Positions 10,168 to 61,053 of a stretch of 64,000 bases of DNA are shown in pieces. A program made the translations under genes and the position numbers. How positions within the stretch are numbered: the stretch's first letter is position 1; every line of letters begins with the position of its first letter. The stretch comes from an uncultured Acidobacteriota bacterium (GTDB taxonomy: Bacteria; Acidobacteriota; UBA6911; RPQK01), in contig CAYQYP010000368.1 in the NCBI GenBank assembly GCA_964421755.1, positions 39,352 to 103,351 on the forward strand, written 5' to 3'. Below the pieces are notes generated by a model. It ran no database searches. It was not told the origin of the DNA and saw only the letters and a program-made list of their open reading frames with translations.

Positions 10168-11793
10168 ATGAAAACAAAACAGCCCGGGCAATCTTCCCTC
10201 CGGACCGATCGCAAAAGCGAATTCAAAACGGTTTCGGGTAAGGTCATCCAACCACTCTACTCCCAGGAAACACTCGGTCAGGTGGACTATGCCCAGGAAC
10301 TGGGCGATCCCGGCCAGTTTCCTTTCACACGAGGCATCTACCCGAGCATGTACCGGGGAAGGCTCTGGACCATGCGCCAGTTCTCGGGGTTCGGGACACC
10401 GGAAGAGACAAACCAACGCTTCAAGTACCTCCTGACGCACGGACAGACAGGGCTTTCTGTTGCCTTTGATCTCCCCACCCTGATGGGCCTAGATTCGGAC
10501 GACGGACTCTCAACCGGCGAGGTGGGTAAATGCGGGGTCGCCGTTGATTCGCTGGAAGATATGCTGATCCTCTTCGACGGGATCCGGCTGGACGAGGTCA
10601 GTGTCTCGATGACGATCAACGCCCCGGCGCCCGTTCTGCTGGCAATGTATATCGCCGTCGCCGAAAAGCAGGGCGTACCGGCCGATCAGCTTCGCGGAAC
10701 TCTGCAGGCGGACATCCTGAAGGAATACATCGCGCAAAAGGAATGGATCTACCCACCCGAGCCATCGATGCGCCTGGTGGTCGACACCATCGAGTACTGC
10801 TCGGCCAATCTTCCGCTGTACAACAGCATTTCGATTAGCGGCTATCACATCAGAGAAGCCGGGTCGACCGCAGTCCAGGAGCTTGCTTTTACCCTCCGGG
10901 ACGGAATCGAATACGCGGATTGGTGTCTGCAGAGGGGCATGCAGGTCGACGAGTTTGCACCCCGGCTCTCGTTTTTCTTCAACTGCCACAACGACTTCTT
11001 CGAAGAAGTCGCGAAATTCCGGGCCGCCCGCCGCCTCTGGGCGCGAACGATGAAAGAACGGTTCGGGGCGCGCAACGAGAAGTCCCTCATGTGTCGCTTC
11101 CACACCCAGACGGCGGGTTGCAGTCTGACCGCCCAGCAGCCTTACAACAACATCATCCGGACGACCATTCAAGCGCTGGCCGCAGTGGTGGGCGGAACCA
11201 ACTCGCTTCATACCAACTCGCTGGATGAAGCGCTCGCCCTTCCGACCGAACAGGCCGCGCGAATCGCCCTGAGGACACAGCAGATCATCGCTCATGAAAG
11301 CGGAGTGACCAACACGCCCGACCCTCTTGGAGGCTCGTATTTCGTCGAAACCTTGACGGAAGAGACAGAACAGGCCGCCGAGGAGTACTTCCGAATCATC
11401 GATGCCATGGGCGGCATGGTGAACGCGATCGAAAGGGGCTTTCCACAGACGGAGATTCAGGAGGCCTCATACCAGTACCAGAGAGCGGTCGAAAGCAAGG
11501 AGCAGATTGTCGTCGGAGTCAACGAGTTCGTCAGTTCGGACGACCAAGGCCCGGAGATCCTGCAGATCGGACGGCAGGCCGAGGAGGCGCAGATCAGACG
11601 GTTGCGGGAAGTGCGGAGTCAACGGGACTCGCAGGCCGTAGAATCGAACCTGGATACGTTGAAGCGAGCAGCTGAAACGACCGCCAACCTGATGCCGTTA
11701 CTTCTCGATTGCGTCAGGAGCTACGCCACTATTGGAGAGATCTGCGGAACACTCAAGGAAGTCTTTGGAACTTATACGGAGCCGGAATTCTAG
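10168..11793 (+). CDS. icmA: B12-dependent acyl-CoA mutase large subunit, isobutyryl-CoA mutase (IcmA)-like
   Basis: [45 protein letters not shown]; no B12-binding domain in this chain. Confidence 0.75.
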
Positions 11794-11821
11794 CCACACG
11801 TGGGGGACCAACGAGGCATTG

Positions 11822-12214
11822 ATGCAAATTTCCCGAATTCTGATCGCAAAACCGGGGCTCGATGGCCATGATCGGGGGGCGAAGGTTGTCGCTCGGGCTT
11901 TGCGAGACGCCGGTTTTGAGGTTATCTACTCCGGGTTGCGTCAGACACCGGAGCAGATCGTCAACGCGGCGATCCAGGAGGATGTCAACGCGATCGGGTT
12001 GTCGATACTGTCGGGTGCTCACATGCCTCTGTTCGACCGTGTCCTTGGCCTCTTGCGTAACCAGGGAGCAGACGATATCCTCCTGTTCGGAGGCGGAATC
12101 ATACCGGAGGCGGACATCTCGGAACTCAAGCGTATGGGAGTCGCGGAGATATTCCTGCCCGGGAGCGATACCCGTGAAATCGTGAAGTTTCTGCAGCAAA
12201 GGCTTAGTTCGTGA
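11822..12214 (+). CDS. icmB: Acyl-CoA mutase cobalamin-binding small subunit
   Basis: [13 protein letters not shown] (DxHxxG), [15 protein letters not shown]. Confidence 0.85.
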
Positions 12215-46288: not shown

Positions 46289-49006
46289 CTACCAAGCCGG
46301 CCCGAAGAATACGGCGTTCAACACCAGCAGATGCAATCCATCACAGAATGCCCGGAAACTCGGATCCTCTGAAAAGGCCACCACGTGACCGGATCCAAGC
46401 GGCTGATGGATGAGATAGGCCTTTTCCGCCAGCTGCCTGGTGGACTCAGGCCAGCTGTAGCCTGACAGCAGCAGTTTGTCCTCGGGCATGTACAGGCCTA
46501 CGTTTTGGCCCTTGTCGAGCTTGATCGGGGTAAAGATGTTCCGGCTCTGGACCAGGACGTTCGCGTCCCCATCGTAACCGAAAGCGAGCCAGTGCTCCGT
46601 GTCCAGCTTTACCCGCAGTATGGCCCCCGGCGTCACTTCGGGTAGTTCCTTTTCTGGTTGAATAGCCTTTTCCAGATCGAACGGTCGGCTTTCGGGCGGC
46701 TGTTTCTGGGCCTCCGGAGCCTTGCCATCCGCGTCAACCGGTTCTTTGGCGGGTTCGGCCGGGCGTTTTTCACCGCTACTTCCTCGAAATTCTCTCGAGC
46801 TGGCCAGCAGATCAACCTTCTCTTCGGTCAACCAGCGAGTCGCTTCCCCCATGGTTACAAGCGTTCCACCCGCCGAAATCCAGTCCTTGAGTCTGCGCAC
46901 CGCCTCGTCTCCGAAAATCGCAGAATAGCCGGCCCGCGAATCCGGGAGTACCAGCACGTCGTACTTTTGCAGCCGCGCGTTGCGAAGGCCCTGCGCATGC
47001 ACGATGGTGACAGGAACGGCGTACACCTGCTCGAGGAGGAATCGCAGTGCCCCGGCCGAAGCCGATGACGTCGGGGTGTTGTAGGCGAGCAGGACTTTGG
47101 GTTTCTTGACGTACTGTACGTGTCCGCTGCCGAAATTGATGCCTTGGTCAACCCATCCGGTGTCGGTTGAGTAGATATCCACGCCGCATTCCGAGCTGAC
47201 CTGCCCCATCAGGTCGTGCAGCTTGTCGGGGTTGCCGTTCACCTTTACGATAAGCGTTCCAGCCGGAAAGCTGGTCGCCCTCTGAACGAACGACTTGCCG
47301 GCTGAATAGACGCGCACATCTTCGGCGAGCAACCGGGAGAGCGCGCGTGCCGAGGAATCACCCGTCCAGGGGATGAGGTATGCCAGGGTGGCTTTGCCAC
47401 CGATCACCTTGCCTTGGTATCGAGGCGCAGCCGCAAGGATTTCCAAACGGGCTTTCGTTTCCTCTTCGGCTGCGAAGCAGTCAACGTCGTAGAGGAGAGG
47501 CAGTGACCAGGCGGTTATGTCATAGAATTCGTCGTCCAGGCGCTTCTTCCTGCGACGTTCCTGTTCCTTTATGAAATCCGCTTCGATTACCGTGTGCCTG
47601 GACAAAAGCGTGGATGCCAGCGCTTTGGCTGGCTGGGCCAGGGACACCACGTAGCTGCCTGCTGGGAACTCGCGAGCTTGCAGGGAGTCTCCGTAGAAAT
47701 CCTTCACTTTGGAATTCTTGAACGGCTCCTCCGCGCGTTTGACCTCGACGCCCTGAGCTATCAAATTCGCGGCCAGCTTCGCTGCCCGGGAAGGGTTCCT
47801 TTGCGGATCGATTATGTACTCGAGCACGGGCCCTTTTCTGCCCGATTCGATTGCTCCCTGGCGCGTGGCATGAAAGTACTTCAGCAGTTCCAGGCGATTC
47901 TTTGCAGCCGTCTCGACGGTTGCGAGCGAGGCAATGAAATGATGCTGGATCGCCTCGCGGTAATGGAGCAGTGTTTCGTCCTCTTTGCGCACGAGCAACC
48001 CTCGGGTCGACGCCTGCTCGAAGGTCATCCCGATGGACCCGTGAAACATGGGCCACCCTTCCCCGTACCCCGGGTAGAAGGAATCGAATACTTCCCGAGT
48101 GAAGTAATCGAAGTGCATTTTGTCGAACCACGCAGCGTTGTTCTTGCCGAACTGAACAAGCCAGTGGTTTTGCTCGCTGGTGAACTCAGGATTGAGCGGA
48201 GGCGCCGGGGGCGCGAAATAATACGTCGAGTCGGCCCCCATCTCGTGTAAGTCGACAAAGACCTGCGGGAACCAGGACAGATAGGCTTTCACACGCCCCT
48301 GGGTCTCAGGCTGCGTCAGTGCGAACCAATCCCGGTTCATGTCGAACAGGTAATGATTGGACCGTCCGCCAGGCCACGGTTCGTTGTGCTCGGCCGCTTC
48401 CTGGCTTTCATCCGGCCAGCGCCCGCGCGTCTGCCTGAAATAGCTGACGAACCGTTCGCGGCCGTCCGGGTTCTGAAGGGGATCGACAATGACAACGGCA
48501 TTTTCAAGGGCCAGTTGAGCCAGGGGATCGTCCTTGGCCGCGACGAGATGATAGACAGTAAGAAGTGCCGCCTCGGGGCTCGAGATCTCGTTCCCGTGAA
48601 CGCCGTAGCCCAACCACACGCAGACGGGCAGGGATTTGAGCAGTCTGTCCGCCTCACCTGAGGACAGCCGGTCCGGCCGGGCGAGCTTTTGAAGCCCTTC
48701 TTGTATTTGCGCCACCCGACCGATATTGGCCTGCGATGAAACGACGATATAGTGCAGGGGACGCTTCTCCCACGTCTCGCCGTACTTGACCAACTGCACT
48801 CGAGGCGAGGCTTTTGCCAGGGCCGCCATGTACGTCTCAATGCCTCGAGGATCCGTGATGTCTTCGCCCCAATCGTAGCCCATCACCTGCTTGAGCGTTG
48901 GAATGGAAGGGTCGTAGGAGGTCCCGGGGTAAAAATCAAAGCCGACAGCCTGATGGGTCAGCAGGCCGAACCATATCGCAAGCAGCAACGGGATTCTTGT
49001 TCGCAT
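46289..49006 (-). CDS. Secreted M14 zinc carboxypeptidase with a C-terminal GATase-like domain
   Basis: Signal peptide; GVHGNE, RSNHYLFDMNRDW, VDLHEMG. Confidence 0.88.
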   Translation of the reverse strand: MRTRIPLLLAIWFGLLTHQAVGFDFYPGTSYDPSIPTLKQVMGYDWGEDITDPRGIETYMAALAKASPRVQLVKYGETWEKRPLHYIVVSSQANIGRVAQIQEGLQKLARPDRLSSGEADRLLKSLPVCVWLGYGVHGNEISSPEAALLTVYHLVAAKDDPLAQLALENAVVIVDPLQNPDGRERFVSYFRQTRGRWPDESQEAAEHNEPWPGGRSNHYLFDMNRDWFALTQPETQGRVKAYLSWFPQVFVDLHEMGADSTYYFAPPAPPLNPEFTSEQNHWLVQFGKNNAAWFDKMHFDYFTREVFDSFYPGYGEGWPMFHGSIGMTFEQASTRGLLVRKEDETLLHYREAIQHHFIASLATVETAAKNRLELLKYFHATRQGAIESGRKGPVLEYIIDPQRNPSRAAKLAANLIAQGVEVKRAEEPFKNSKVKDFYGDSLQAREFPAGSYVVSLAQPAKALASTLLSRHTVIEADFIKEQERRRKKRLDDEFYDITAWSLPLLYDVDCFAAEEETKARLEILAAAPRYQGKVIGGKATLAYLIPWTGDSSARALSRLLAEDVRVYSAGKSFVQRATSFPAGTLIVKVNGNPDKLHDLMGQVSSECGVDIYSTDTGWVDQGINFGSGHVQYVKKPKVLLAYNTPTSSASAGALRFLLEQVYAVPVTIVHAQGLRNARLQKYDVLVLPDSRAGYSAIFGDEAVRRLKDWISAGGTLVTMGEATRWLTEEKVDLLASSREFRGSSGEKRPAEPAKEPVDADGKAPEAQKQPPESRPFDLEKAIQPEKELPEVTPGAILRVKLDTEHWLAFGYDGDANVLVQSRNIFTPIKLDKGQNVGLYMPEDKLLLSGYSWPESTRQLAEKAYLIHQPLGSGHVVAFSEDPSFRAFCDGLHLLVLNAVFFGPAW

Positions 49007-49090
49007 AGGCAGCAGGAGTCTAGCGGCTACGAGCGCCGATTTCAACAACTGCGCCTGCTTTGGCCCCTTAGAGGTTTCATCCGAAAAGCG

Positions 49091-50565: not shown

Positions 50566-51705
50566 TTACCGTGAAGAGGCCCCGGCCCTTCTGATAATAA
50601 TATCGCCGTTGACTGTATCCAGCCGGATGATCTCGCCACCGCCGTTCAGGTCAAAAACCGCCCGGATTTCCTCCGCCTGCTCATCCCGGACGTGCTCGGT
50701 TGCCTTGAAGTCCGAACGGACATCGTACCTGCTGCCTTCCGCCCTCCATCGGCCCTGGATTTTGATGGTCGCTTCAATCCGGGCCCTGGCGCCTTCAGGG
50801 ATGTTCAGCGTAATGCTGCCGCCGGAAGTGCTCAGCGTACTCGGGCCCTTGCCGGAGGGATTCAGTTCGGCAATCACGTCACCGCCCGCTGTTGAACCAT
50901 CCAGGGTCCCGGAAATTCCACGGAGCCGAAGGTCTCCCCCGGCCGTTCGCGCCTTGACATGACCGGTTGCGGACTGGCACTCGACATCGCCGCCGGCGGT
51001 CGTCAGGGTCGCCGACCCGCTCACCTGGCCTACTCGCACATCGCCACCGGCCGTGGTCAGGCTCGCCTCTCCGCCAACATCGCCGACCCGGACGTCCCCA
51101 CCTGCGGTGGTTGCCTTCAGCGATCGGCCGACATCGCCGACAACGACGTCGCCACCGGAGGTGCCGACAATCACGTCCCCGTCAGCACTGGTGAGGCGGA
51201 TATCGCCGCCCGCTGTTTTCAGTTCAACGTCTCCTTGGACGGCGCCTGCCGTCACATCTCCGCCCGAAGTCTTCAGGCTGACTTTGCCGTTCAGATCGCC
51301 GACCGTGATGTCGCCGCCCGCTGTCGAACCTGTGACTGTCCCCGTCAGGGTTCCCACGATCCGGATATCGCCACCGGCCGTTTTCAGCTGGACGTCAAAG
51401 CGCGACGGTATATTGATTTCGAAGTGAACGTCCCCACTGGACTCCTCGGGCCGGAAGTCGACATGAACGACATTCCCCGACTGGGTCATCGACAGACGCG
51501 CCACCTCTTCTTCATCGATACCGAACACCTCAACCGACACCTGGTTTTGTCCCCACGTGTTCAGGGTTACGTCACCGACCGAAGTGTTCAGCACGAGAGA
51601 TCCGCCGGCGCCGACCTCGAACGTCTTGGAGCGATCCGCCGCCAGCACCGGCGAAATGAAAATCAACATCAGCACGACACTTGAACACCAGGCTCTCTTG
51701 CTCAT
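50566..51705 (-). CDS. DUF4097 beta-strand-repeat secreted protein
   Basis: Signal peptide and many (T/S)AGGD(V/I) repeats. Confidence 0.85.
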   Translation of the reverse strand: MSKRAWCSSVVLMLIFISPVLAADRSKTFEVGAGGSLVLNTSVGDVTLNTWGQNQVSVEVFGIDEEEVARLSMTQSGNVVHVDFRPEESSGDVHFEINIPSRFDVQLKTAGGDIRIVGTLTGTVTGSTAGGDITVGDLNGKVSLKTSGGDVTAGAVQGDVELKTAGGDIRLTSADGDVIVGTSGGDVVVGDVGRSLKATTAGGDVRVGDVGGEASLTTAGGDVRVGQVSGSATLTTAGGDVECQSATGHVKARTAGGDLRLRGISGTLDGSTAGGDVIAELNPSGKGPSTLSTSGGSITLNIPEGARARIEATIKIQGRWRAEGSRYDVRSDFKATEHVRDEQAEEIRAVFDLNGGGEIIRLDTVNGDIIIRRAGASSR

Positions 51706-52631
51706 TTTTCTTTGGCCTCCTCGACCACGGCCCTCGACCGCACCCGGATGTACTCGTTCGCATCCGTCTGCATACTTTCTTCCAAAACCCTCAGTACCTT
51801 GGGATCGCGAGAATTCTGAGTCTTGATTGCATCTATCGCAGCGATTCGCAAAGCCGGATTGGGATCCGACGTCAGTACATAGAGCAACGAATCGCGTACC
51901 TCAACATCGAATGGAAAATTCAACAGGGCTGCAAGGGCTTGCTTTCTGACGCCGTCATTCTCATCAAGCTTCACGGCCGTGATCAGCGCGTTTTTGACTT
52001 CCGGATCCGGCTGCTTCATCTGATCGGTGTTCAATACTCCAACCGCTCGCAGGCGGGTCCCCGGGTTTTGTCCGTTGACCAGCGCCCTGCTCAGAATTTG
52101 TTGGATTCGCTCGTCGTTCACGTCGCCCTTGAGGCGGACCGGCATCGTCGCCTCGTAACTGAACTCCACCTGCCCATCGCTCGGATCAGCGTCCAGAAAG
52201 CGGACATTGCTGATGGCAGCGTCTTCGATCGAAGCCCACTTGTTCGGCACGCTGGGGGTGATCAGCGTCCCCGGGGGGCCGTCCTGACGACCCCTGAACA
52301 CCAGGTACCCGATCCCCAGGCCCAACAGGATGCACAAAGCACCTGCAAGCGCGCCTTGCCACGCGGGAAGCCAGGACCAAAGCCACGAAGCACTCTTGCG
52401 CTCGCTCATCGACAGCATCCGGATCCGGAGCTCGCGTCGAGCCGATTCGAGCACCTGGTCCGGGATTTCGGACCGTCGACCGAGCATCTCCTGCACGTGG
52501 TTCAGCTCTTCCAACTGGCTCGTGCACTCGGGGCAGGCCTTCAGATGCTGCTGGAGCAGGTACTTTTGGTCTTCGTCGAGTTCACCGTATCCCAGCAGCG
52601 GGATCCATTCTTTGAACTGACTGTGTTTCAT
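51702..52631 (-). CDS. zf-HC2 anti-sigma factor with a TM helix and periplasmic HEAT repeats
   Basis: YGEL...HLKACPEC; TM helix; NPGTRLRAV, NDGVRKQAL, NPALRIAAI, NEYIR repeats. Confidence 0.85.
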   Translation of the reverse strand: MKHSQFKEWIPLLGYGELDEDQKYLLQQHLKACPECTSQLEELNHVQEMLGRRSEIPDQVLESARRELRIRMLSMSERKSASWLWSWLPAWQGALAGALCILLGLGIGYLVFRGRQDGPPGTLITPSVPNKWASIEDAAISNVRFLDADPSDGQVEFSYEATMPVRLKGDVNDERIQQILSRALVNGQNPGTRLRAVGVLNTDQMKQPDPEVKNALITAVKLDENDGVRKQALAALLNFPFDVEVRDSLLYVLTSDPNPALRIAAIDAIKTQNSRDPKVLRVLEESMQTDANEYIRVRSRAVVEEAKEK

Positions 52632-52651
52632 ATGGCTCTCCTGCGACTCCG

Positions 52652-53248
52652 CTATGTCAGGACCGGCTTCAGGCTGTCCCGCAAACGCTCCGTTGCGGTA
52701 AAGAGGTACTTTTTGACCGTCCCCTCGGCACAGTTCATCATCGCTGCGATTTCTCTGAGTTTGTATCCCTCGTAATGGCGGAGGGTAAAGACCAGACGTT
52801 GTTGCGGTGAAAGTGTTTTCATGGCCATCGCAACGTGCCGCGCCACCTCACCGTCGTACGCTTTCTGGTCGGAAGACCGTTCGTCCGACGCTTGTTTTTC
52901 GAGCAGGCTCTGGCTCTCCTCGTCCTCGACGAAATCCAAGGAGTCAGCCTCCCGGTTCTTCCGTCGGCGTTGCTGTGTCAGGCAGACGTTCACCACGATC
53001 CGGTACAACCACGTGGAGAACCGGGCATCGAACCGGAACTTCGGCAGCGCCTTGAAAACTCTGAGGAAGACTTCCTGGTAAACATCCTTGGCATCGTCCA
53101 GGTTGTTGCCCGTATAGCTGGCCGCAATGGCCAGGACTTTCCGGTCGTACCGATACACCAGGTCCTCAAACGCGCGCCTGTCGCCCCGTTGTGCCAAGAG
53201 TATCAGCTCCCTTTCTTCCTCGAGCGTCCCTGAGTGATCGCTTAACAC
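52652..53248 (-). CDS. ECF RNA polymerase sigma factor
   Basis: GDRRAF..LV.RY, DAKDVYQEVF, FSTWLYRI, LSPQQRLVF.LRHYEG..LREIA, GTVK. Confidence 0.93.
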   Translation of the reverse strand: MLSDHSGTLEEERELILLAQRGDRRAFEDLVYRYDRKVLAIAASYTGNNLDDAKDVYQEVFLRVFKALPKFRFDARFSTWLYRIVVNVCLTQQRRRKNREADSLDFVEDEESQSLLEKQASDERSSDQKAYDGEVARHVAMAMKTLSPQQRLVFTLRHYEGYKLREIAAMMNCAEGTVKKYLFTATERLRDSLKPVLT

Positions 53249-53289
53249 GGTCGTTAGACTCCGTAAGGGTTGAAAAAGTTGTGGGCCTG

Positions 53290-53368
53290 GTTGGTCCCGC
53301 TTCCAACTGGGACATTCTATCCAAAGCACTGCAAGAGGACAGCTGTCCGACTTGGAAGTCGGACCTCG
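53290..53368. repeat. Inverted REP doublet (GTCCGAC family)
   Basis: GTTG-GTCCCGCTTCCAACTGGGAC at 53290-53313 and GTCCGACTTGGAAGTCGGAC-CTCG at 53345-53368. Confidence 0.8.
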
Positions 53369-53380
53369 TGAAGCAAAGTA

Positions 53381-54379
53381 CTAGGCGATTCGCGGGCGGA
53401 AGACCTGGCAGGATAGCTCGGCAAAAGCCTCGCGGAGTTTCGCGAACACTTCATCGCTCTCGCAAATCCCGACGATCGAACCGCCCGAACCTGCGTACTT
53501 GGCCGATACCCCGAAACTGCGGGCAAGACAAACCATCTCGACATTGCGCGGATCCAACTTGCAGATGGAGGCGCGCGTGTCGAAATTCAGGTTCATGAGC
53601 TTGTGGAGCGTCTTGTAATCCCTGCGAAGCAGGGCGTCGCGACCTTGAGCTGCCAGGTCGGCAAACGTCTTCATAGCGTTGATCACGGCCGGCTCACCCT
53701 GTTCCCAGCGAGTTCTCAGATTACTGTGGAAGATGCCCGAAATCTGGCTGAGGTCCGTCCGGCAGGCGATGTAAAGCGGCGGCAGAAGCGCCGGATCGAG
53801 CGGCTCGTACGTCCCGTACCCCCTGGTCTCCAGCAATTCCCGGTCAAAATCCATGTAAACCAGCCCCTCGTAGACTTGGCAAACCCGGTCCTGGAGACCC
53901 GCGTCGATGCCGATCTCGCTCTTTTCGACTTCGAGGATAAGGTTCGGAAGCATCTCCCTTGGAATCGAAACCGAATAGAATTCAGTAAGGGCCCGAAAAA
54001 CCGCGGTGATTATGGCGCTTGATCCCGACAACCCGACCTGACGCGGGATGTCGCTGTCGTACCGAAGCGCGAAATTCTCGCCCGAGAGGTTGATCTTCTG
54101 ACTCTGACAGTACTCGACGAACCGCTTGATTGACGCCTTGATCAGGCGCAGGCCGCCATAAAGGCCGTTGAGTTTTACATCCTCGACCAGATCTTCCAGG
54201 CGGTCGAATTGGCAGCGATCCTGCCGGCTGAGAATGATCTCGATCTCCGGCCACTCGTAGACGACCACTTCGGCGCAGAAGTTCTTGACGATCACCGAGA
54301 TCGTCTTCCCGAAATAACCGTCGGAAGGATTCCCGAGCAGCCCCGCCCGAGCGTACGCCTTAGCTTTAACGATCTTCAC
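53381..54379 (-). CDS. GHMP kinase, glucuronokinase-like
   Basis: ARAGLLGNPSDGYFGKTIS, YDSDIPRQVGLSGSSA, AGLQDRV.QVY, MDF, MNLNFD.R, AKYAGSGG: the motif set of plant glucuronokinases as recalled. Confidence 0.8.
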   Translation of the reverse strand: MKIVKAKAYARAGLLGNPSDGYFGKTISVIVKNFCAEVVVYEWPEIEIILSRQDRCQFDRLEDLVEDVKLNGLYGGLRLIKASIKRFVEYCQSQKINLSGENFALRYDSDIPRQVGLSGSSAIITAVFRALTEFYSVSIPREMLPNLILEVEKSEIGIDAGLQDRVCQVYEGLVYMDFDRELLETRGYGTYEPLDPALLPPLYIACRTDLSQISGIFHSNLRTRWEQGEPAVINAMKTFADLAAQGRDALLRRDYKTLHKLMNLNFDTRASICKLDPRNVEMVCLARSFGVSAKYAGSGGSIVGICESDEVFAKLREAFAELSCQVFRPRIA

Positions 54380-55256
54380 GGCACAACTCCTGAAGCCGCT
54401 GCCTTAGTTTCGGCCCGAGTTGAGGATCGTCAAGGGCGAACTCGAGAAATGCCTCGAAATAGCTTTCGAAATTGCCTATGTCGTAGCGCTCTTCGCCGGG
54501 AGGGAGACGGACACCCAGGATTTTCTCCCCCTGCTTGAGAAGCAAGCGGATGGCATCGGTGAGCTGAATCTCGCCATTTTTCCCCGGTAGTGTTTGCGCG
54601 ATCGCCTCGTAAATTGCCGGTGAGAATACGTAACGAGCGGCTATCGCAAGCCGACTGGGGGCTTCTTCGGGCGACGGCTTTTCAACGAGATCTTCGATTT
54701 CGAAGGTACTTCCGTTCCCCACCGCCTTAACGATGCCGTACTGACCGACAGCCGCCGCAGGCACTTCTTCCACCGCGATCACGCAGGCAGCCTGGCAGCT
54801 GACGAAGTCCCGGATCATCTGTCTTACGACCTGCGACGAGGCATTGCGACCCAGGATGCTGTCGCCCAGGGCTACCACGAACGGGCGGTCCTGGGTGAAA
54901 TGCCGCGCGCACAAGACTGCGTCACCCAGTCCTTTTTGTCGTCGTTGGCGGGAGTAGAAGAACTCCATCCGCATCCGTTCGTATTCCAGTTCCGGAAGCA
55001 GATCTTCTTTCCCCCCTTCCCGCAATCGGCGGGTCAGCTCATAGTCGAAATCGAAGTGATCTTCGATTGAGCTCTTGTTCCGACCCGTAACGAACAGGAT
55101 CTGTTTGATCCCGTTGCCCTCGAGCTCCTCGACCACATACTGCACAACCGGTTTCTTTCCAACCGGAAGCATTTCCTTCGGTTGGGACTTGGTGGCGGGC
55201 AGCAGACGAGTTCCCAGTCCGGCGACCGGTATTACCGCAATCTGAATGTCATCCAT
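54366..55256 (-). CDS. galU: GalU-family UTP:sugar-1-phosphate uridylyltransferase
   Basis: AVIPVAGLGTRLLPATKSQPKEMLPV, IEDHFD, KGLG.AV, LVEKP, EIQLTDA. Confidence 0.85.
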   Translation of the reverse strand: MDDIQIAVIPVAGLGTRLLPATKSQPKEMLPVGKKPVVQYVVEELEGNGIKQILFVTGRNKSSIEDHFDFDYELTRRLREGGKEDLLPELEYERMRMEFFYSRQRRQKGLGDAVLCARHFTQDRPFVVALGDSILGRNASSQVVRQMIRDFVSCQAACVIAVEEVPAAAVGQYGIVKAVGNGSTFEIEDLVEKPSPEEAPSRLAIAARYVFSPAIYEAIAQTLPGKNGEIQLTDAIRLLLKQGEKILGVRLPPGEERYDIGNFESYFEAFLEFALDDPQLGPKLRQRLQELCREDR

Positions 55257-55259
55257 TGA

Positions 55260-56690
55260 TTACTTCCCCGTTGGCTGCCCTGTTTCGGCCATCTCGAGCG
55301 CTTTGGTCGTCGTGTAGTATTTAGCGATCATGTTGGGGACTTCCCAATCCGGCAAACGTCCGCGCACCAGGTAGCCCAGGTACTTCTCCGCGACCTGCCC
55401 GAAGTGAGCCTCATGGCCCACCCGGTATTTGTCGGGTATACGAACGTGGTAGAGCTTTCCGACTTGCCGAACCTCGAGACCGGGATACGCGGAGTTCAGG
55501 CCGTCGACCGCCTTGTTCAAAGCGTCGAACACCGCTATCGCATCCATTTCCGGGGTCGGCTCAACGTAGAGCTCAGGCCTGTAGTTCTCCTCTTTGCCCT
55601 GTTGAATAATGATGTTGGACCTGGTGCCTCGCATGATCGAATAGTGTGTATCGCCTGCGCCTTGAGGAGCTTCGAAATTCCAGATCACTGATACTTTGGC
55701 ATGAAGACCGCGGAGCCTGTAGATCATCTCCCCGTTCGAGTAATAGGGGAGATTCCCGTCGCTGTCCAGCTGCGATTTCAGGTAATCGGGGAACTCCGTG
55801 GCAATGGTGACCTTGGCCAACTGCTCCTTTGTCACGATGGTGGGCCATCGGCGAGCCTTGATCATCTGTATTTCTGTCTTGTAGTTGACCTTGTAGCCCG
55901 GGAAGGCACCCCACATGACGAGGTCGACGAGGTGGGTGGCAACATCCACCAACCCCTCGCCCTGCTGCTTGACATCGAGGTACCAGAGCGGTCTCTTCAG
56001 AGGCTGACCGGCCACGTATTTGAACAGATGGTGGACGCTCTCCTTGGTGATGGTCGGTTCCTCTGGCGAGCCTATCCGATAGTTCCCGAACACCTGCCAG
56101 TTATGAGACAGCTCCTTCTGGAGGATACTGGTGATCTCATAACGTTCGGTCATAATGTCGTAGAGCTGGACGTTGTTTTTCCGGGCCGACTCGAACGCCA
56201 CTCGCAGGACTTCCCAGCCCTTCTGGTCGATGCACATCGGTTTGTCGGCGAGGACGTTTATCCCGGCATCCACGCATCTCTTGATGTACTCGGTCTTCCG
56301 CTGATTGTTGCCGGCGAGGATGACCACATTACCGGGCCGTTCCGACATCATCTTGTCGAAGAAATCAGGACCCCGGTAGATCTTTTGCTCCCAGCGCGTC
56401 GGGTTTTCGGCGCGAGTATTGAAGCCCTGCACCCGCTTCAGGTGTTCTTCAAGGTCCCACCCGTCCGGAGCATAGACGTGAACGAGGGGGGCAACCTGCG
56501 GATACATCGTTTTCTGGACGAGGGCCGCATGGAAGTGACCAGGGTCTACCACCATGAGTTTGACCTCTCCGGGAGCTCCGCTGAACTTGCCTTTTGTCTG
56601 CATAGCGACGGTAAACAAGGCCCCGATGCAAAGAAGTAACACCAGCGGCCTGAGTTTCGATGATGGTGATTGGGGATTTTTGTGTTTCAT
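55260..56690 (-). CDS. Secreted Gfo/Idh/MocA-like oxidoreductase with a putative oxidoreductase C-terminal domain (BT2159-like)
   Basis: DPGHFHAALVQK, GNNQRKTEYI, VLADKPM, YDIMTER, GEGLVDV.THLVDL. Confidence 0.75.
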   Translation of the reverse strand: MKHKNPQSPSSKLRPLVLLLCIGALFTVAMQTKGKFSGAPGEVKLMVVDPGHFHAALVQKTMYPQVAPLVHVYAPDGWDLEEHLKRVQGFNTRAENPTRWEQKIYRGPDFFDKMMSERPGNVVILAGNNQRKTEYIKRCVDAGINVLADKPMCIDQKGWEVLRVAFESARKNNVQLYDIMTERYEITSILQKELSHNWQVFGNYRIGSPEEPTITKESVHHLFKYVAGQPLKRPLWYLDVKQQGEGLVDVATHLVDLVMWGAFPGYKVNYKTEIQMIKARRWPTIVTKEQLAKVTIATEFPDYLKSQLDSDGNLPYYSNGEMIYRLRGLHAKVSVIWNFEAPQGAGDTHYSIMRGTRSNIIIQQGKEENYRPELYVEPTPEMDAIAVFDALNKAVDGLNSAYPGLEVRQVGKLYHVRIPDKYRVGHEAHFGQVAEKYLGYLVRGRLPDWEVPNMIAKYYTTTKALEMAETGQPTGK

Positions 56691-56766: not shown

Positions 56767-57606
56767 TCAGAGACCCAGCGCCTTCATTGTCCCGCGCAGG
56801 TATCCGATGGATTCGGCTGCCCCCGCCAGCGGATCGTCCTCGTCCTTCTCGTATTCGAGAGCCAGAACTCCGGTGTACTTGATTTTCTTCAGAGTCCTCA
56901 GAAAACCCGGGATGTCTATAACACCGCGCCCGACCTCGACCGTACTTCCTTTGGCCGTGGCCTCGGATACGTCCTTGATATGGACGTCAAACAGTCGATC
57001 CGCTGCCTTCCTGGCCGCCTGTGCTGGATCGATGCCGCTCCTCTGGGTGTGCCCGACATCGATGCACAGCCCCAGTTTCGGATCGCGTTTGTCGATTTTT
57101 TCCAACACGCTCTCCGGCGTAGGGTACAGCTTATCTCCGGGTCCGTGGTTGTGAATGGCCAAGCGGATATCATACTCCTTCACTTTGGCCTCCACGAGAT
57201 CCAGCAACTCGTGGTTCGGAACGCCGATAATGAGCTTCATGCCGGCAGCCCGCGCATAATCAAAGCCCTGGCGAACCTCCGCTTCCGACTTCATGTAAAC
57301 CACACCGCATCCATACAGGTCTAGCCCCTGCTCGCGTACCTGGGCTGCGATTGTCTTGATCTCTTCAAGCCCGGTTTCCAGCGGCAGGTGCATGCTCTTG
57401 AATGCGACCCTGGTCAAACCCAGACGCTTGGTCATCGCGAGGGCTTGCTCCCGCGGGAACTTCCGGAAAGTGTACGACGCCATCCCAAGCGGCAAATCGC
57501 CCGCGGCACTTTGCGTCCGGCCCTGAGCGTGAACAAGGGCCGGCGCAAGAACCGCCCCGCCTGCCGCGACAAGGAAATTTCTCCGGTTTGGAGTGACTCC
57601 TGCCAT
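56767..57606 (-). CDS. Tat-exported xylose-isomerase-like TIM-barrel protein (BT2156-like)
   Basis: NRRNFL signal; ASYTFR, AIHNHGP.D..YP, DVGHT, HIKDV, EVGRG.IDI, LEYEKD. Confidence 0.8.
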   Translation of the reverse strand: MAGVTPNRRNFLVAAGGAVLAPALVHAQGRTQSAAGDLPLGMASYTFRKFPREQALAMTKRLGLTRVAFKSMHLPLETGLEEIKTIAAQVREQGLDLYGCGVVYMKSEAEVRQGFDYARAAGMKLIIGVPNHELLDLVEAKVKEYDIRLAIHNHGPGDKLYPTPESVLEKIDKRDPKLGLCIDVGHTQRSGIDPAQAARKAADRLFDVHIKDVSEATAKGSTVEVGRGVIDIPGFLRTLKKIKYTGVLALEYEKDEDDPLAGAAESIGYLRGTMKALGL

Positions 57607-57687
57607 AGCGACCTCCTGATCGAAAAATGCGTCTAACTCGGTTTCACTATTGCACATCGTGGTCCCCATTGTGAATCACGAACTAGC

Positions 57688-57870: not shown

Positions 57871-60800
57871 ATGTACCGCAGTTCTATTCGACCCTGGGAC
57901 TATCTGATCGTGACCGCCTCAAACCGGCAGCAGGCTCTCGCCTACGAGCGGCAGCTGGAACTGCGCACCCGACTCGGATACCTGACCGACGTCCGGCGGA
58001 GCCTCGTCGTCGCCGATCCCGACGGCAAGCGGATCGGCAGCGGAGGAAGTACCCTCTACTCCCTGCTTGCCGTCCTGAACCAGGAATTGAGCCAAATCAC
58101 CGGCGACCGCCTGAATCCCAACCTGTGGGAGCAGGTATTCAGAAAACTGAGAATCCTCATTGTCCACGCCGGGGGGGACTCGAGGCGGCTGCCCGCCTAT
58201 GCCCCTTGCGGAAAGCTTTTCATTCCGGTTCCCGGAGATAACGACGGGGCGCTCACAACCACGCTGTTCGACCGCCAGATCGCTACCTACCTCGGGTTGC
58301 CCGGACCGGCAGACGACGCAGGTCAGATCGTGGTGACGGCCGGGGACGTACTGCTCACCTTCGATCCATCTCAGGTCTGCTTTGCTCCCGCAGGGGTGAC
58401 CGGACTCGGCTGCCACTCTTCGCCGGAAGAGGCCTCGAGGCACGGAGTTTACTGTGTCGGATCGGGCGGCGCGGTCCGCCTCTACCTGCAGAAACCGTCC
58501 GAAAGCCAACAGAGAGCGGTGAATGCGATCGACCGCTACGGGCGAAGCGTCCTCGATATTGGAGTTCTGAACTTCGACAGCGGGACCGCCGCGCGGCTCC
58601 TGGCGCTTTTCGAGATAGAGGTGAGCGGGGCGAACGAGCTCCAGTGGAGCCAGACCATCGATGATCTCCTCAAGGCACGGGGGCTCGATGTTTACCGGGA
58701 AGTGTGCTGCGCGATGGGTAGCGGCGTCGACTTTGACCGTTACCTGCAGTCGGCCGTGGAGAGCGGCTCGATCCTTGGCAAGAGTTTCCTCTCACGTCTG
58801 TTCGAAGGCCTCTCGATAGTCCCCTTCCATGCTCAGACGATCGAACGCTGCGGCTTTCTGCATTTCGGGACGACGCGCCACATCATTGAGAGCGGCGCGG
58901 AGCTGGCCCGCCGAGACCGTGGGCTGTCGAGGCTGAATGAACCCCTGACGGTCAATACGGTTTTCTTCGAGGGCGGAGGCGTCCTCGGCGCCGACTCGTG
59001 GATCGAAGGTTGCCGAGTGCACTCGCCGGTGCAACTGGGGGGAGCGAACATCGTCGTGGGCGCGGACATCGAGAGACCGCTCGAACTCGGGGTGGGTGAC
59101 TGCCTGGACGTTGTAGAGGGGCAAGACCGTTTGGGTCACCGAGTTTTCTTCAATCGGCTGTACGCGGTCTCGGACAGCTTCAAGGGCACCTCTGCAGAGA
59201 CGCGCTTTTGCGGGCAGCCTCTTCGGAACTGGATCCAGGCGATGGGCGCCCGGGACGAGCAGATCTGGCCAGCCGAGGTGTCGCCTGAAGCGCGCAGTAT
59301 CTGGAATGCGAGGTTATTTGTAGCGACGGCGGAGCCCTCCGGCTTCTTCGAATGGCTCTGGCTCTTCAAGCCTGAAGATGCAGGGGACTCCGACCGCAAG
59401 CGCTACCTGGACGCCGACCGGTACAGTCTGAGCGAGATGGGGAACCTTGCGGATTTTGAAGCATTCTACCGACGCCGCGCCGAGATCCGCGCGACCGAAA
59501 TCGGGCAGTCTCTATCCGCAATCTTCCGACCGGACAGTCGCTTCTCGGCCTCCGAGCTGGCCTGGATACTCGAGCGCTCCGACCAGCCGGACAGGCTGAT
59601 CCAAGGACTGATTGCCGAGGCGCGATGGCATGCCGGATCGTGCGCCGAAGCCGGCATGCAGATCTTCACGCTTTCCCGGTTGGTCCATTCCCTGGGCACC
59701 GCTGTCGCCTTGCTTGGGGAAACGAACAACGAGATGGCCGAGCGACTCGTCGGCGCGCTTCAGACGAGCCTGGGAACTGAAGACCGCGAATGGCTGGCAT
59801 CCCAGCAACTCTGCCCTGAAGCCCGGAATTCCGGCAAATGGAGGGATCAGGCGCAGGACTTCGCCTTCGACCAGCTCGGGTGCGCCATCCTCGACAGCGC
59901 GTCGACAGAGTTGCAGGATCCGCCCCGCAATGCCCTGCGACCCGACGAAATCGTCTGGGGACGGGCACCGGCCAGGCTCGATCTGGGAGGCGGCTGGACC
60001 GACACTCCTCCGTATTCGCTGGAATTCGGCGGGAGCGTGATCAACGCAGCCGTGAACCTCAATGGACAGCCACCTATCCAATGCTACGCGCGGGTGACGG
60101 AAGACCGGGTGATTCGTATCGGCTCGATCGATCAGGGCACAAGGATCCAAATCGCCGATTTCGACTCGTTGCTCGACTATCGGCAGGCAACGAGCGAGTT
60201 CGGGCTTGCCAAAGCTGCCCTGGCCCTCTCCGGCTTTTGTCCGGCCGTAACCCGAGCGAATCGGCCGGCGACCCTCGGGGCATTGCTTGACCGGTTTGGA
60301 GGCGGAGTCGAGCTCACTACTTTGGCTGCGATCCCAAAGGGGAGCGGGCTCGGAACATCAAGCATCATGGGCGCGGTGGTCTTGTCCGTGATCGCAAGAA
60401 TGCTCGGGCGAACCCTGTCTCAACGAGACCTCTTCCACGCGGTTCTCCGGCTGGAGCAGGCGCTCACGACCGGCGGCGGCTGGCAAGACCAGATCGGGGG
60501 AGCAGTGGATGGCGTCAAGGTCATCAGCTGCGCGCCGGGACTTATCCCCGACCCGCGTATTCATTACGTCCCTGCGGATGTCCTGGACCCGCGCTCCAAC
60601 CGAGGGACGACGCTGCTGTTCTACACGGGGATCACTCGATTGGCAAAGAACATCCTGCGTGACGTGGTCGGCCGGTATCTCGACAGGGACCGCACCGCCC
60701 TCGCGACTCTCCGGCAGCTCCACGGGCTACCTCCCTTGGTTGCGGACACGATGGCCCGAAAAGATCTGCCCGCGTTCGGCCGGATGATTGACACCGCCTG

Positions 60801-61053
60801 GCGGCTGAACAAACAGCTCGACCCGCACTCCAGCAACGAGAAGATCGAAAGCCTGCTTCAGACGCTGGCACCGCACTTGCACGGGGCTAAGCTCCTGGGT
60901 GCAGGCGGGGGCGGATTCCTGCTCATGGTCTGCAAATCCCCGGAGGCCGCCGCAGAGGTCCGGGCGCTCCTGACATCGGCTCCCCCCAATCCCCGCTCGC
61001 GCTTTTTCGATTTCGACGTGAGCGCGGAGGGTTTGGTTGTCAGCGTCTGCTGA
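57871..61053 (+). CDS. fkp: Bifunctional L-fucokinase / fucose-1-phosphate guanylyltransferase
   Basis: N-terminal DPDGKRIGSGG.T and HAGGDSRRLP..APCGK; C-terminal PARLDLGGGWTDTPP, PKGSGLGTSS, TTGGGWQDQ, GAKLLGAGGGG. Confidence 0.88.
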   Translation: MYRSSIRPWDYLIVTASNRQQALAYERQLELRTRLGYLTDVRRSLVVADPDGKRIGSGGSTLYSLLAVLNQELSQITGDRLNPNLWEQVFRKLRILIVHAGGDSRRLPAYAPCGKLFIPVPGDNDGALTTTLFDRQIATYLGLPGPADDAGQIVVTAGDVLLTFDPSQVCFAPAGVTGLGCHSSPEEASRHGVYCVGSGGAVRLYLQKPSESQQRAVNAIDRYGRSVLDIGVLNFDSGTAARLLALFEIEVSGANELQWSQTIDDLLKARGLDVYREVCCAMGSGVDFDRYLQSAVESGSILGKSFLSRLFEGLSIVPFHAQTIERCGFLHFGTTRHIIESGAELARRDRGLSRLNEPLTVNTVFFEGGGVLGADSWIEGCRVHSPVQLGGANIVVGADIERPLELGVGDCLDVVEGQDRLGHRVFFNRLYAVSDSFKGTSAETRFCGQPLRNWIQAMGARDEQIWPAEVSPEARSIWNARLFVATAEPSGFFEWLWLFKPEDAGDSDRKRYLDADRYSLSEMGNLADFEAFYRRRAEIRATEIGQSLSAIFRPDSRFSASELAWILERSDQPDRLIQGLIAEARWHAGSCAEAGMQIFTLSRLVHSLGTAVALLGETNNEMAERLVGALQTSLGTEDREWLASQQLCPEARNSGKWRDQAQDFAFDQLGCAILDSASTELQDPPRNALRPDEIVWGRAPARLDLGGGWTDTPPYSLEFGGSVINAAVNLNGQPPIQCYARVTEDRVIRIGSIDQGTRIQIADFDSLLDYRQATSEFGLAKAALALSGFCPAVTRANRPATLGALLDRFGGGVELTTLAAIPKGSGLGTSSIMGAVVLSVIARMLGRTLSQRDLFHAVLRLEQALTTGGGWQDQIGGAVDGVKVISCAPGLIPDPRIHYVPADVLDPRSNRGTTLLFYTGITRLAKNILRDVVGRYLDRDRTALATLRQLHGLPPLVADTMARKDLPAFGRMIDTAWRLNKQLDPHSSNEKIESLLQTLAPHLHGAKLLGAGGGGFLLMVCKSPEAAAEVRALLTSAPPNPRSRFFDFDVSAEGLVVSVC

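Follow-up and report, generated by a model that had tools for sequence, protein, structure and literature searches.

An Overlapping Gene Pair Encoding a Glucuronokinase-Family Kinase and a GalU Paralogue Is a Candidate Bacterial Route from Free Glucuronate to UDP-Glucuronate

Can bacteria make uridine diphosphate (UDP)-glucuronate directly from free D-glucuronate (GlcA)? To our knowledge, bacterial UDP-glucuronate is assumed to arise solely by oxidation of UDP-glucose. The question is raised by two overlapping genes in a 64,000-nucleotide stretch of DNA (the window) from an uncultured Acidobacteriota bacterium. According to the list of open reading frames (ORFs), Pfam domains and motifs, one of them (positions 53381..54379, minus strand; 332 amino acids [aa in the following], GTG start) encodes a GHMP kinase of the glucuronokinase family. 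The other (54366..55256, minus strand; 296 aa, ATG start) encodes a GalU-family sugar-1-phosphate uridylyltransferase paralogue, which is predicted to be a GlcA-1-phosphate (GlcA-1-P) uridylyltransferase. The first-pass annotation of this DNA had proposed that the pair leads from GlcA via GlcA-1-P to UDP-glucuronate. This route is established in plants, where it depends on glucuronokinase (GlcAK) and a broad UDP-sugar pyrophosphorylase (USP), and it has been proposed in fish, which have a fusion protein, GKUP. Comparative tests of family membership, gene pairing, fusions and the contact to the sugar 6-hydroxyl (6-OH) came out in its favor, and the activities of the two enzymes stay at the level of prediction. 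We consider it fairly probable that the module converts free glucuronate to UDP-glucuronate.

Both ORFs were recovered where they had first been annotated, and the described overlap of 14 nucleotides (nt) is exact. By direct reading, the shared stretch on the minus strand is GTGAAGATCGTTAA (54366..54379), in which the stop codon TAA of the transferase gene occupies 54366-54368 and the start codon GTG of the kinase gene 54377-54379. A Shine-Dalgarno sequence for the kinase, AGGAG (54387..54391, minus strand), is located 7 nt before the GTG, within the 3' end of the transferase gene. The 14-nt overlap implies translational coupling, and together with the internal Shine-Dalgarno sequence it would tie the synthesis of the two enzymes to each other. 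According to the gene calls, the identical overlap is present in the loci L001-L004, the surroundings of which are quite different. Furthermore, tblastn placement revealed that the transferase and kinase genes overlap or abut in most of the loci L005-L084. The two ORFs are in different frames and do not constitute one polypeptide of the GKUP fusion type.

The kinase harbors the Pfam domains GHMP_kinases_N (PF00288; 3.3e-12) and GHMP_kinases_C (PF08544; 2.5e-6). The motif series typical of glucuronokinases, which the first-pass annotation had quoted together with a GLGDA motif in the transferase, was found in full: GLLGNPSDGYFGKTIS at residues 13-28, IPRQVGLSGSSA at residues 111-122, GLQDRVCQVY at residues 161-170, LPPL at residues 199-202, RWEQG at residues 224-228 and MNLNFDTR at residues 262-269. 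In an alignment with plant, fish, ichthyosporean and chytrid sequences, all elements of the family series (LGNPSD.Y.G.TIS, IPRQ.GL.GSSA, GLQDRV.QVY, RW..G, NFD.R and GSGG) were present. In addition, the peptide VGFLGNPSDVYFGR, which was sequenced from the enzyme purified from lily (Lilium) pollen (Pieslinger et al. 2010), aligns with AGLLGNPSDGYFGK at residues 12-25 of the window kinase.

An exhaustive search of 1.84 billion protein cluster representatives retrieved 554 relatives of the kinase at E ≤ 1e-30. Among the named ones were the plant cluster representative Ziziphus jujuba glucuronokinase 1 (46% identity, 264 bits, 1.4e-73), the Carassius carassius "glucuronokinase with putative uridyl pyrophosphorylase" (GKUP; 47%, 296 bits, 4.1e-83), and ichthyosporean and chytrid fusion proteins. 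The best scores to other characterized families were much lower (HddA, 46 bits; mevalonate kinase, 45 bits), as was that of the best PDB chain (42 bits); a sequence search of the PDB detected no solved GlcAK structure. In a ten-sequence alignment with 48 invariant columns, the window kinase was 44% identical to Ziziphus GlcAK1, 45% to the kinase domain of Carassius GKUP and 45-46% to the ichthyosporean and chytrid fusions. Its identity to more distant bacterial members was 38-50%, so that the eukaryotic proteins are equally close. A neighbor-joining tree of 124 sequences, which was built without support values and is descriptive only, placed eukaryotic and bacterial proteins in one tight family, separated by a long branch from the outgroup, the Fkp kinase domain. 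We conclude that, judged by sequence, membership of the kinase in the glucuronokinase family is far beyond chance.

Because of this family membership, GlcA can be predicted with reasonable strength as the substrate of the window kinase. Arabidopsis GlcAK1 and zebrafish DrGK accept only D-GlcA; activities with glucose, xylose, arabinose, galactose and galacturonate were below detection with both enzymes, and those with mannose, fucose and rhamnose were below detection with DrGK. A rival reading is that the module salvages another sugar with gluco configuration at C2 to C4 and an altered C6, for instance xylose, quinovose, a uronic acid other than GlcA or a glucose modified at C6, to yield another UDP-sugar. 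GHMP anomeric kinases can shift their specificity, and the bacterial kinases differ by 54-56% from the assayed eukaryotic ones. Moreover, the signature of the transferase described below says only that the 6-position differs from that of glucose, and a bacterial galactokinase was reported to salvage xylose together with a glucose-1-phosphate (Glc-1-P) uridylyltransferase by promiscuity (Shi et al. 2022, as cited in PMC11267548, for Solitalea canadensis GalK). However, both assayed members, which span the plant-animal split, are strictly GlcA specific, and the bacterial kinases share the 48 invariant columns and one tight family with the eukaryotic enzymes. Salvage of a different sugar is thus rather unlikely, and the window kinase is likely to be specific for GlcA.

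The transferase belongs to the GalU family. It matched the Pfam domain NTP_transferase (PF00483; 1.3e-31) and, besides it, only PF12804; it is 41% identical to Escherichia coli GalU and matches Bacillus subtilis YngB at 2.3e-69. A UDPGP-family domain of the plant USP type (about 500-600 aa) was not found in this 296-aa protein; therefore, the second step would use an enzyme family other than the plant's. The GxGTR loop, the VEKP motif and the uridine, phosphate and Mg2+ residues of GalU are conserved. When we mapped the contact residues listed for Klebsiella KpUGP, with reference to the Pseudomonas aeruginosa structure, T16, R17, K27, E28, Q104, G109, D132, G174, E192 and K193 were invariant or nearly so in 120 kinase-linked enzymes. 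They comprise the catalytic Thr/Arg pair, the two phosphate-binding lysines, the uracil-binding Gln, Glu and glycines, and the Mg-binding Asp. The contact of the VEKP Glu to the sugar 2- and 3-hydroxyls and the backbone contact to the 4-hydroxyl are also kept.

These likenesses are compatible with the view that the protein is the lineage's ordinary, possibly promiscuous, UDP-glucose pyrophosphorylase located beside a sugar kinase, with GlcA-1-P as a side substrate at most. In line with this view, close relatives are labeled UTP--glucose-1-phosphate uridylyltransferase by NCBI and JGI, and all catalytic residues and contacts to the 2-, 3- and 4-hydroxyls are intact. No second GalU-like gene was detected within the 64-kb window, a result that weighs little either way. 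On the other hand, the window transferase reached only 297.6 bits with the galU equivalog model TIGR01099, below the cut-off of 326.8 (E. coli GalU, 385.8 bits), and the seven other kinase-linked transferases tested scored 220-296 bits, all below the cut-off. A published statement in the zebrafish fusion paper, that GlcA-1-P has no other known fate, also argues for a dedicated second enzyme rather than an ordinary GalU.

The genomic distribution of the two genes bears directly on this point. A pattern scan over one genome per GTDB species revealed at least 503 species genomes that encode a relative of the kinase. We inspected the 80 closest loci (L005-L084), mostly from metagenome-assembled genomes of Acidobacteriota, and found a GalU-like gene directly upstream of the kinase gene and on the same strand in 79 of them. 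No other neighbor was conserved past the two closest loci. In the converse scan, metagenome contigs were queried with the transferase alone, and the 80 best loci were analyzed. Among the 49 transferases that had readable flanks and carried Ser or Thr behind the Mg-binding Asp (S/T type; see below), 44 were encoded next to a kinase gene, and all 44 kinase-adjacent proteins of this transferase-selected set belonged to the S/T subfamily. Almost all transferases of lower identity (44-50%) lacked a kinase neighbor; the closest GalU of the set with Asp at this position (L145) is a Nitrospiria protein. Distant kinases (38-55% identity) were likewise partnered, as in the Planctomycetia locus L090, the cultured planctomycete Thermostilla marina and locus L088, and the pair was also present in L089, where the gene order is reversed.

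Furthermore, at least nine bacterial protein clusters contain a transferase-kinase fusion with the transferase first (P0129, P0302-P0306, P0308, P0314 and P0329). P0129 has identities of 43% and 47% to the proteins of the window pair. Natural fusions of this kind classically point to a shared pathway of the enzymes involved. The near-constant translational coupling or fusion to one kinase is unexpected for a housekeeping UDP-glucose pyrophosphorylase.

If the transferase acts on GlcA-1-P, a difference should be sought at C6, the position at which glucose (CH2OH) and glucuronate (COO-) differ. Indeed, the residue that follows the Mg-binding Asp132 of the window protein is Ser133 (motif ALGDSIL; codon at 54858..54860, minus strand), which we propose as the C6 specificity switch. 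It corresponds to V138 of E. coli GalU and to D131 of P. aeruginosa PaUGP. For the P. aeruginosa enzyme, the supplement of the published UGP study describes a hydrogen bond between Asp131 and the glucose 6-OH and an almost inactive D131A variant. In none of 127 kinase-adjacent transferases was this residue acidic (121 Ser, 4 Thr and 2 Cys), whereas 23 of the 28 transferases without an adjacent kinase had Asp (12) or Glu (11). In the 120 linked enzymes mapped (114 Ser, 4 Thr and 2 Cys), it was the sole sugar or substrate contact that differed from GalU. The loss of an acidic side chain at the C6 contact would be expected of an enzyme that has to accommodate a carboxylate.

In the transferase-selected set, S/T- and D/E-type proteins were split 44 to 0 among those with an adjacent kinase and 5 to 23 among the others (Fisher p = 2.5e-14, without phylogenetic correction); since the sequences are related, this p value overstates their independence. 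A subfamily-position scan detected 23 alignment positions, including the 6-OH contact, that separate the linked subfamily from unlinked GalUs, and the alignment revealed two small insertions relative to GalU. Two of these positions are in the DIGNFES loop (residues 259-265; 54462..54482, minus strand), where the invariant Lys and the last, likewise invariant Gly of DxGxKxG are replaced by Phe263 and Ser265 in the alignment with E. coli RfbA, GalU and YngB. At an adjacent position, Trp224 of RmlA borders the C6 pocket for the sugar and is reported to have been engineered for 6-modified sugars; a structure titled W224H exists.

In contrast to the residue after the Mg-binding Asp, the GLGDA motif (residues 109-113; 54918-54932, minus strand), which the first-pass annotation had pointed out in place of the usual GLGHA, turned out to be a poor marker. 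It is part of the uridine-binding loop RQRRQK-GLGDA (residues 103-113; 54918..54950, minus strand), with Asp112 for the usual His and extra basic residues after Gln104; the motif reads GLGHA in both E. coli GalU and B. subtilis YngB. At position 112, the 127 kinase-linked enzymes had D (100), H (26) or S (1), and the 28 unlinked ones had H (27) or D (1). GLGDA was found in all 79 Acidobacteriota pairs and in most fusions, but GLGHA is kept in the planctomycete pairs (L090, Thermostilla), in L088 and in many metagenome pairs, and L089 has GLGSA. Since 26 of 127 kinase-linked transferases retain GLGHA, and the substrate-binding and catalytic residues listed for KpUGP do not include the His, we rejected GLGDA as a specificity signature and regard it as a clade trait only. 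A basic residue (R or K) occupied position 105, after the uracil-binding Gln, in 119 of the 127 linked proteins and in 6 of the 28 unlinked ones. Arg105 of the window protein, together with Ser133 and the DIGNFES loop, is a candidate for contacting the carboxylate of GlcA.

Several observations weigh against the proposed salvage route. To a large extent, the Ser/Asp contrast reflects a division between clades. E. coli GalU, with Val at the same position, also lacks an acidic residue there and is nevertheless a genuine UDP-glucose pyrophosphorylase; published work links a short side chain at the 6-OH contact to promiscuity rather than to a switch, and Ser at this position is compatible with the use of Glc-1-P. 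Two kinases, those of L063 (2701-3696) and L087 (8001-8999), lack an adjacent transferase gene, and Ser-type transferases without an adjacent kinase are encoded in L128, L131, L132 and L134, in addition to one of the Thr type. Among the annotated ORFs of the window (about 26 of the ORFs of at least 200 aa), there was no glucuronidase, transporter, myo-inositol oxygenase or GlcA-using glycosyltransferase. The eukaryotic uridyl pyrophosphorylase (UP) domain never gave robust pyrophosphorylase activity, neither in vitro nor in yeast (Gangl et al. 2014), and full-text literature searches retrieved no paper characterizing a bacterial glucuronokinase or a GalU-type UDP-glucuronate pyrophosphorylase.

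The exceptions to the pairing showed some features of their own. The L087 kinase gene is flanked by sfsA and a mutY-like gene. For both the L087 and the L063 kinase, the partner may be encoded at another site of the genome or may be unneeded. The transferases of L128, L131, L132 and L134 have LGDSI or LGDSM, are 57-58% identical to the window protein and have no kinase gene within 2.5 kb downstream; an RQSEQL loop is shared by three of them. These transferases could belong to the subfamily without being linked, or else make up a functional group of a third kind.

Taken together, the kinase family, the two-way gene pairing, the bacterial fusions and the residue change at the sugar 6-position contact strengthen the salvage reading. 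Because the linked subfamily is set apart at 23 positions, is coupled to one kinase and falls below the GalU cut-off, we regard an ordinary GalU as an unlikely explanation. If the kinase is specific for GlcA, the linked transferase very probably uses GlcA-1-P. According to the salvage reading, the kinase would use ATP to phosphorylate free D-GlcA at C1, yielding alpha-GlcA-1-phosphate, as family membership predicts. The transferase would then convert GlcA-1-P and UTP to UDP-glucuronate and pyrophosphate in a Mg2+-dependent reaction, as suggested by the linkage, the fusions and the active-site comparison. Ser133 in place of the acidic 6-OH-binding residue would remove the charge repulsion against the C6 carboxylate. 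The GlcA may come from turnover of the cell's own polymers or from the environment, and the UDP-glucuronate presumably feeds envelope or exopolysaccharide (EPS) synthesis, bypassing UDP-glucose dehydrogenase.

Parts of this picture have precedents. Homologues in "a few bacteria" were noted by Pieslinger et al. (2010), namely in Solibacter usitatus, Dyadobacter fermentans and Verrucomicrobium spinosum, JGI annotates many such bacterial kinases as glucuronokinase, and the zebrafish fusion is published. The first-pass annotation knew of no characterized bacterial equivalent, and none was found in the literature searched; the family itself, however, had already been noticed. The plant GlcAK (Arabidopsis GlcAK1/At3g01640 and the Lilium enzyme; EC 2.7.1.43) belongs to the same GHMP family and has the motifs, including the Lilium peptide, in common with the window kinase. 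Its second step, however, is performed by a large eukaryotic-type USP encoded elsewhere, whereas the window kinase is paired with a small enzyme of the GalU type, the gene of which overlaps that of the kinase. From GalU, GtaB and YngB (EC 2.7.7.9), which have the same fold, length and contacts to uridine, phosphate, Mg2+ and the 2-, 3- and 4-hydroxyls, the window transferase differs by the Ser at the 6-OH contact, GLGDA, the Phe and Ser in the DxGxKxG loop and the near-constant kinase linkage.

The zebrafish and Xenopus GKUP resembles the window pair in that a kinase of the same family is physically coupled to a domain of the NTP_transferase fold; it is one polypeptide in the order transferase-kinase, while the window has two overlapping genes. 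Gangl et al. (2014) described the N-terminal domain of eukaryotic GKUP as akin to bacterial nucleotidyltransferases, and the bacterial relatives were said to encode the pyrophosphorylase alone. With a profile of eukaryotic UP domains, the window transferase scored 19.7 bits, E. coli GalU 11.4 bits and RfbA 4.6 bits, weak values that can be read as a rank order only; the UP domain is very divergent, and BLAST of a eukaryotic UP domain against the window transferase gave no match at 1e-3. In P0134 and 21 other GKUP N-terminal domains, the GxGTR loop is degenerate (GHGTI in Carassius, GVGNS or VDTE in others). The Arg with a catalytic role in bacterial GalU is missing from many eukaryotic UP domains, whereas the window-type transferase keeps all catalytic residues. 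The degenerate loop may be the reason that attempts to reconstitute the pyrophosphorylase activity of the zebrafish and Xenopus proteins did not succeed. A further-reaching possibility is that the kinase-linked GalU subfamily is a dedicated GlcA-1-P uridylyltransferase with an Asp/Glu-to-Ser switch at C6, which would make it the first GalU-type UDP-glucuronate pyrophosphorylase, and that the bacterial pair or fusion represents the prototype of GKUP in function and possibly also its source in evolution; we put this forward tentatively and hold it doubtful in this full form.

Two bacterial systems follow a comparable logic. Fkp of Bacteroides also combines a GHMP anomeric kinase with a nucleotidyltransferase to convert a free sugar to a nucleotide sugar in two steps, but it uses L-fucose and GTP, its pyrophosphorylase belongs to the family PF07959 and its kinase domain is only distantly related. 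The Solitalea canadensis route mentioned above likewise leads from a free sugar to a UDP-sugar by an anomeric kinase and a uridylyltransferase. As far as the citing paper reports it, that route relies on a promiscuous galactokinase and a general uridylyltransferase, whereas the window pair consists of dedicated, coinherited subfamilies.

The genomic context in other lineages fits the supply of a sugar donor to surface polymers, since the fusion P0302 (L091, 1-17902) and the separate pair of L088 (1-17023) are located inside exosortase (EpsH) EPS clusters. These clusters also contain genes for glycosyltransferases, WecB and a nucleotide-sugar dehydrogenase, epimerases of the short-chain dehydrogenase/reductase (SDR) type, a heparinase II/III-like protein, a sulfotransferase and sulfate activation by CysNC/CysD, which suggests a sulfated, uronic-acid-containing polymer. 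The SDR genes beside the fusion in L091 and the like gene in L088 were considered as UDP-glucuronate 4-epimerase or decarboxylase, but this assignment was dropped, because they gave only generic matches of the GalE or dTDP-glucose-dehydratase type below the cut-offs.

A different fate of the product is conceivable: the pair could be catabolic or regulatory, trapping imported GlcA as GlcA-1-P or UDP-glucuronate for UDP-xylose or UDP-galacturonate formation or for detoxification. The pair of L089 is indeed located among genes of a sugar-acid catabolic type, encoding an ILVD/EDD dehydratase, an MR/MLE family protein and short-chain dehydrogenases. Moreover, the window pair follows genes for a secreted oxidoreductase and a TIM-barrel protein. 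The first (55260-56690, minus strand) encodes a PF16490/GFO-IDH-MocA-type protein with an N-terminal signal or membrane anchor, and its stop is 3 nt from the transferase start; upstream of it, the second (56767-57669, minus strand) encodes a xylose-isomerase-like protein with an apparent twin-arginine (Tat) signal, RRNFLVAAGG. However, the context varies between genomes and only the two genes are conserved, while the clearest contexts are EPS biosynthesis clusters. A catabolic or regulatory role is therefore very unlikely, and it concerns the fate of the product only; the kinase and transferase reactions would not differ from those in the salvage of GlcA for polysaccharide supply.

What is new here is the near-obligate pairing and fusion in bacteria, the breadth across genomes and the C6-contact signature, and not the existence of bacterial homologues. 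If the salvage reading is correct, a second route to UDP-glucuronate would alter models of uronic-acid-rich envelopes and EPS in abundant soil and sediment phyla. A systematic database label would be corrected, because the linked transferases are now called UDP-glucose pyrophosphorylases, and specificity within the GalU family would become predictable from a single residue, the one in contact with the sugar 6-position. The bacterial enzymes, with their intact catalytic loop, would offer a tractable system for the "putative pyrophosphorylase" of zebrafish and Xenopus; T. marina is a cultured carrier of the pair. Furthermore, the compact bacterial pair or the natural fusions could replace plant kinase and USP in one-pot UDP-glucuronate synthesis.

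The remaining surroundings of the pair were little conserved. The oxidoreductase and TIM-barrel genes are possibly cotranscribed with the pair, yet they are outside the conserved module. A promoter and terminator scan of 52.5-58 kb yielded nothing above the shuffle expectation, and none was convincing between the upstream genes and the pair. A wider operon was rejected, since these upstream genes and the downstream gene for an extracytoplasmic function (ECF) sigma factor are kept only in L005 and L006. The sigma factor gene (52652-53329, minus strand) begins 51 nt downstream of the kinase gene and is followed by genes for a putative anti-sigma protein with HEAT-like repeats (51702-52631, minus strand) and a secreted protein rich in AGGD(V/I) repeats (50566-51705, minus strand); this group (50566-53329) is likewise kept only in L005 and L006. 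In L004, an Acidobacteriota chromosome, a gene for a D-2-hydroxyacid dehydrogenase (11025-12071) starts 2 nt past the kinase stop and is possibly cotranscribed, which is not so in the window.

At 57871-61053 on the plus strand, 2.6 kb from the pair and divergently transcribed, the window encodes a 1,060-aa Fkp homologue (L-fucokinase/GDP-fucose pyrophosphorylase; PF07959 and GHMP domains), a second two-step sugar-salvage enzyme near the pair. It scored 588 bits with PRK13412 (cut-off, 721 bits) and adjoins the pair elsewhere only in L006. The UDP-glucose dehydrogenase gene ugd was likewise not seen among the annotated window ORFs (the same set of about 26), and the remaining ones are housekeeping genes. 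Farther downstream of the kinase gene, a 919-aa secreted protein (46289-49048, minus strand) combines an N-terminal M14 zinc carboxypeptidase domain with a large C-terminal part that has no Pfam match.

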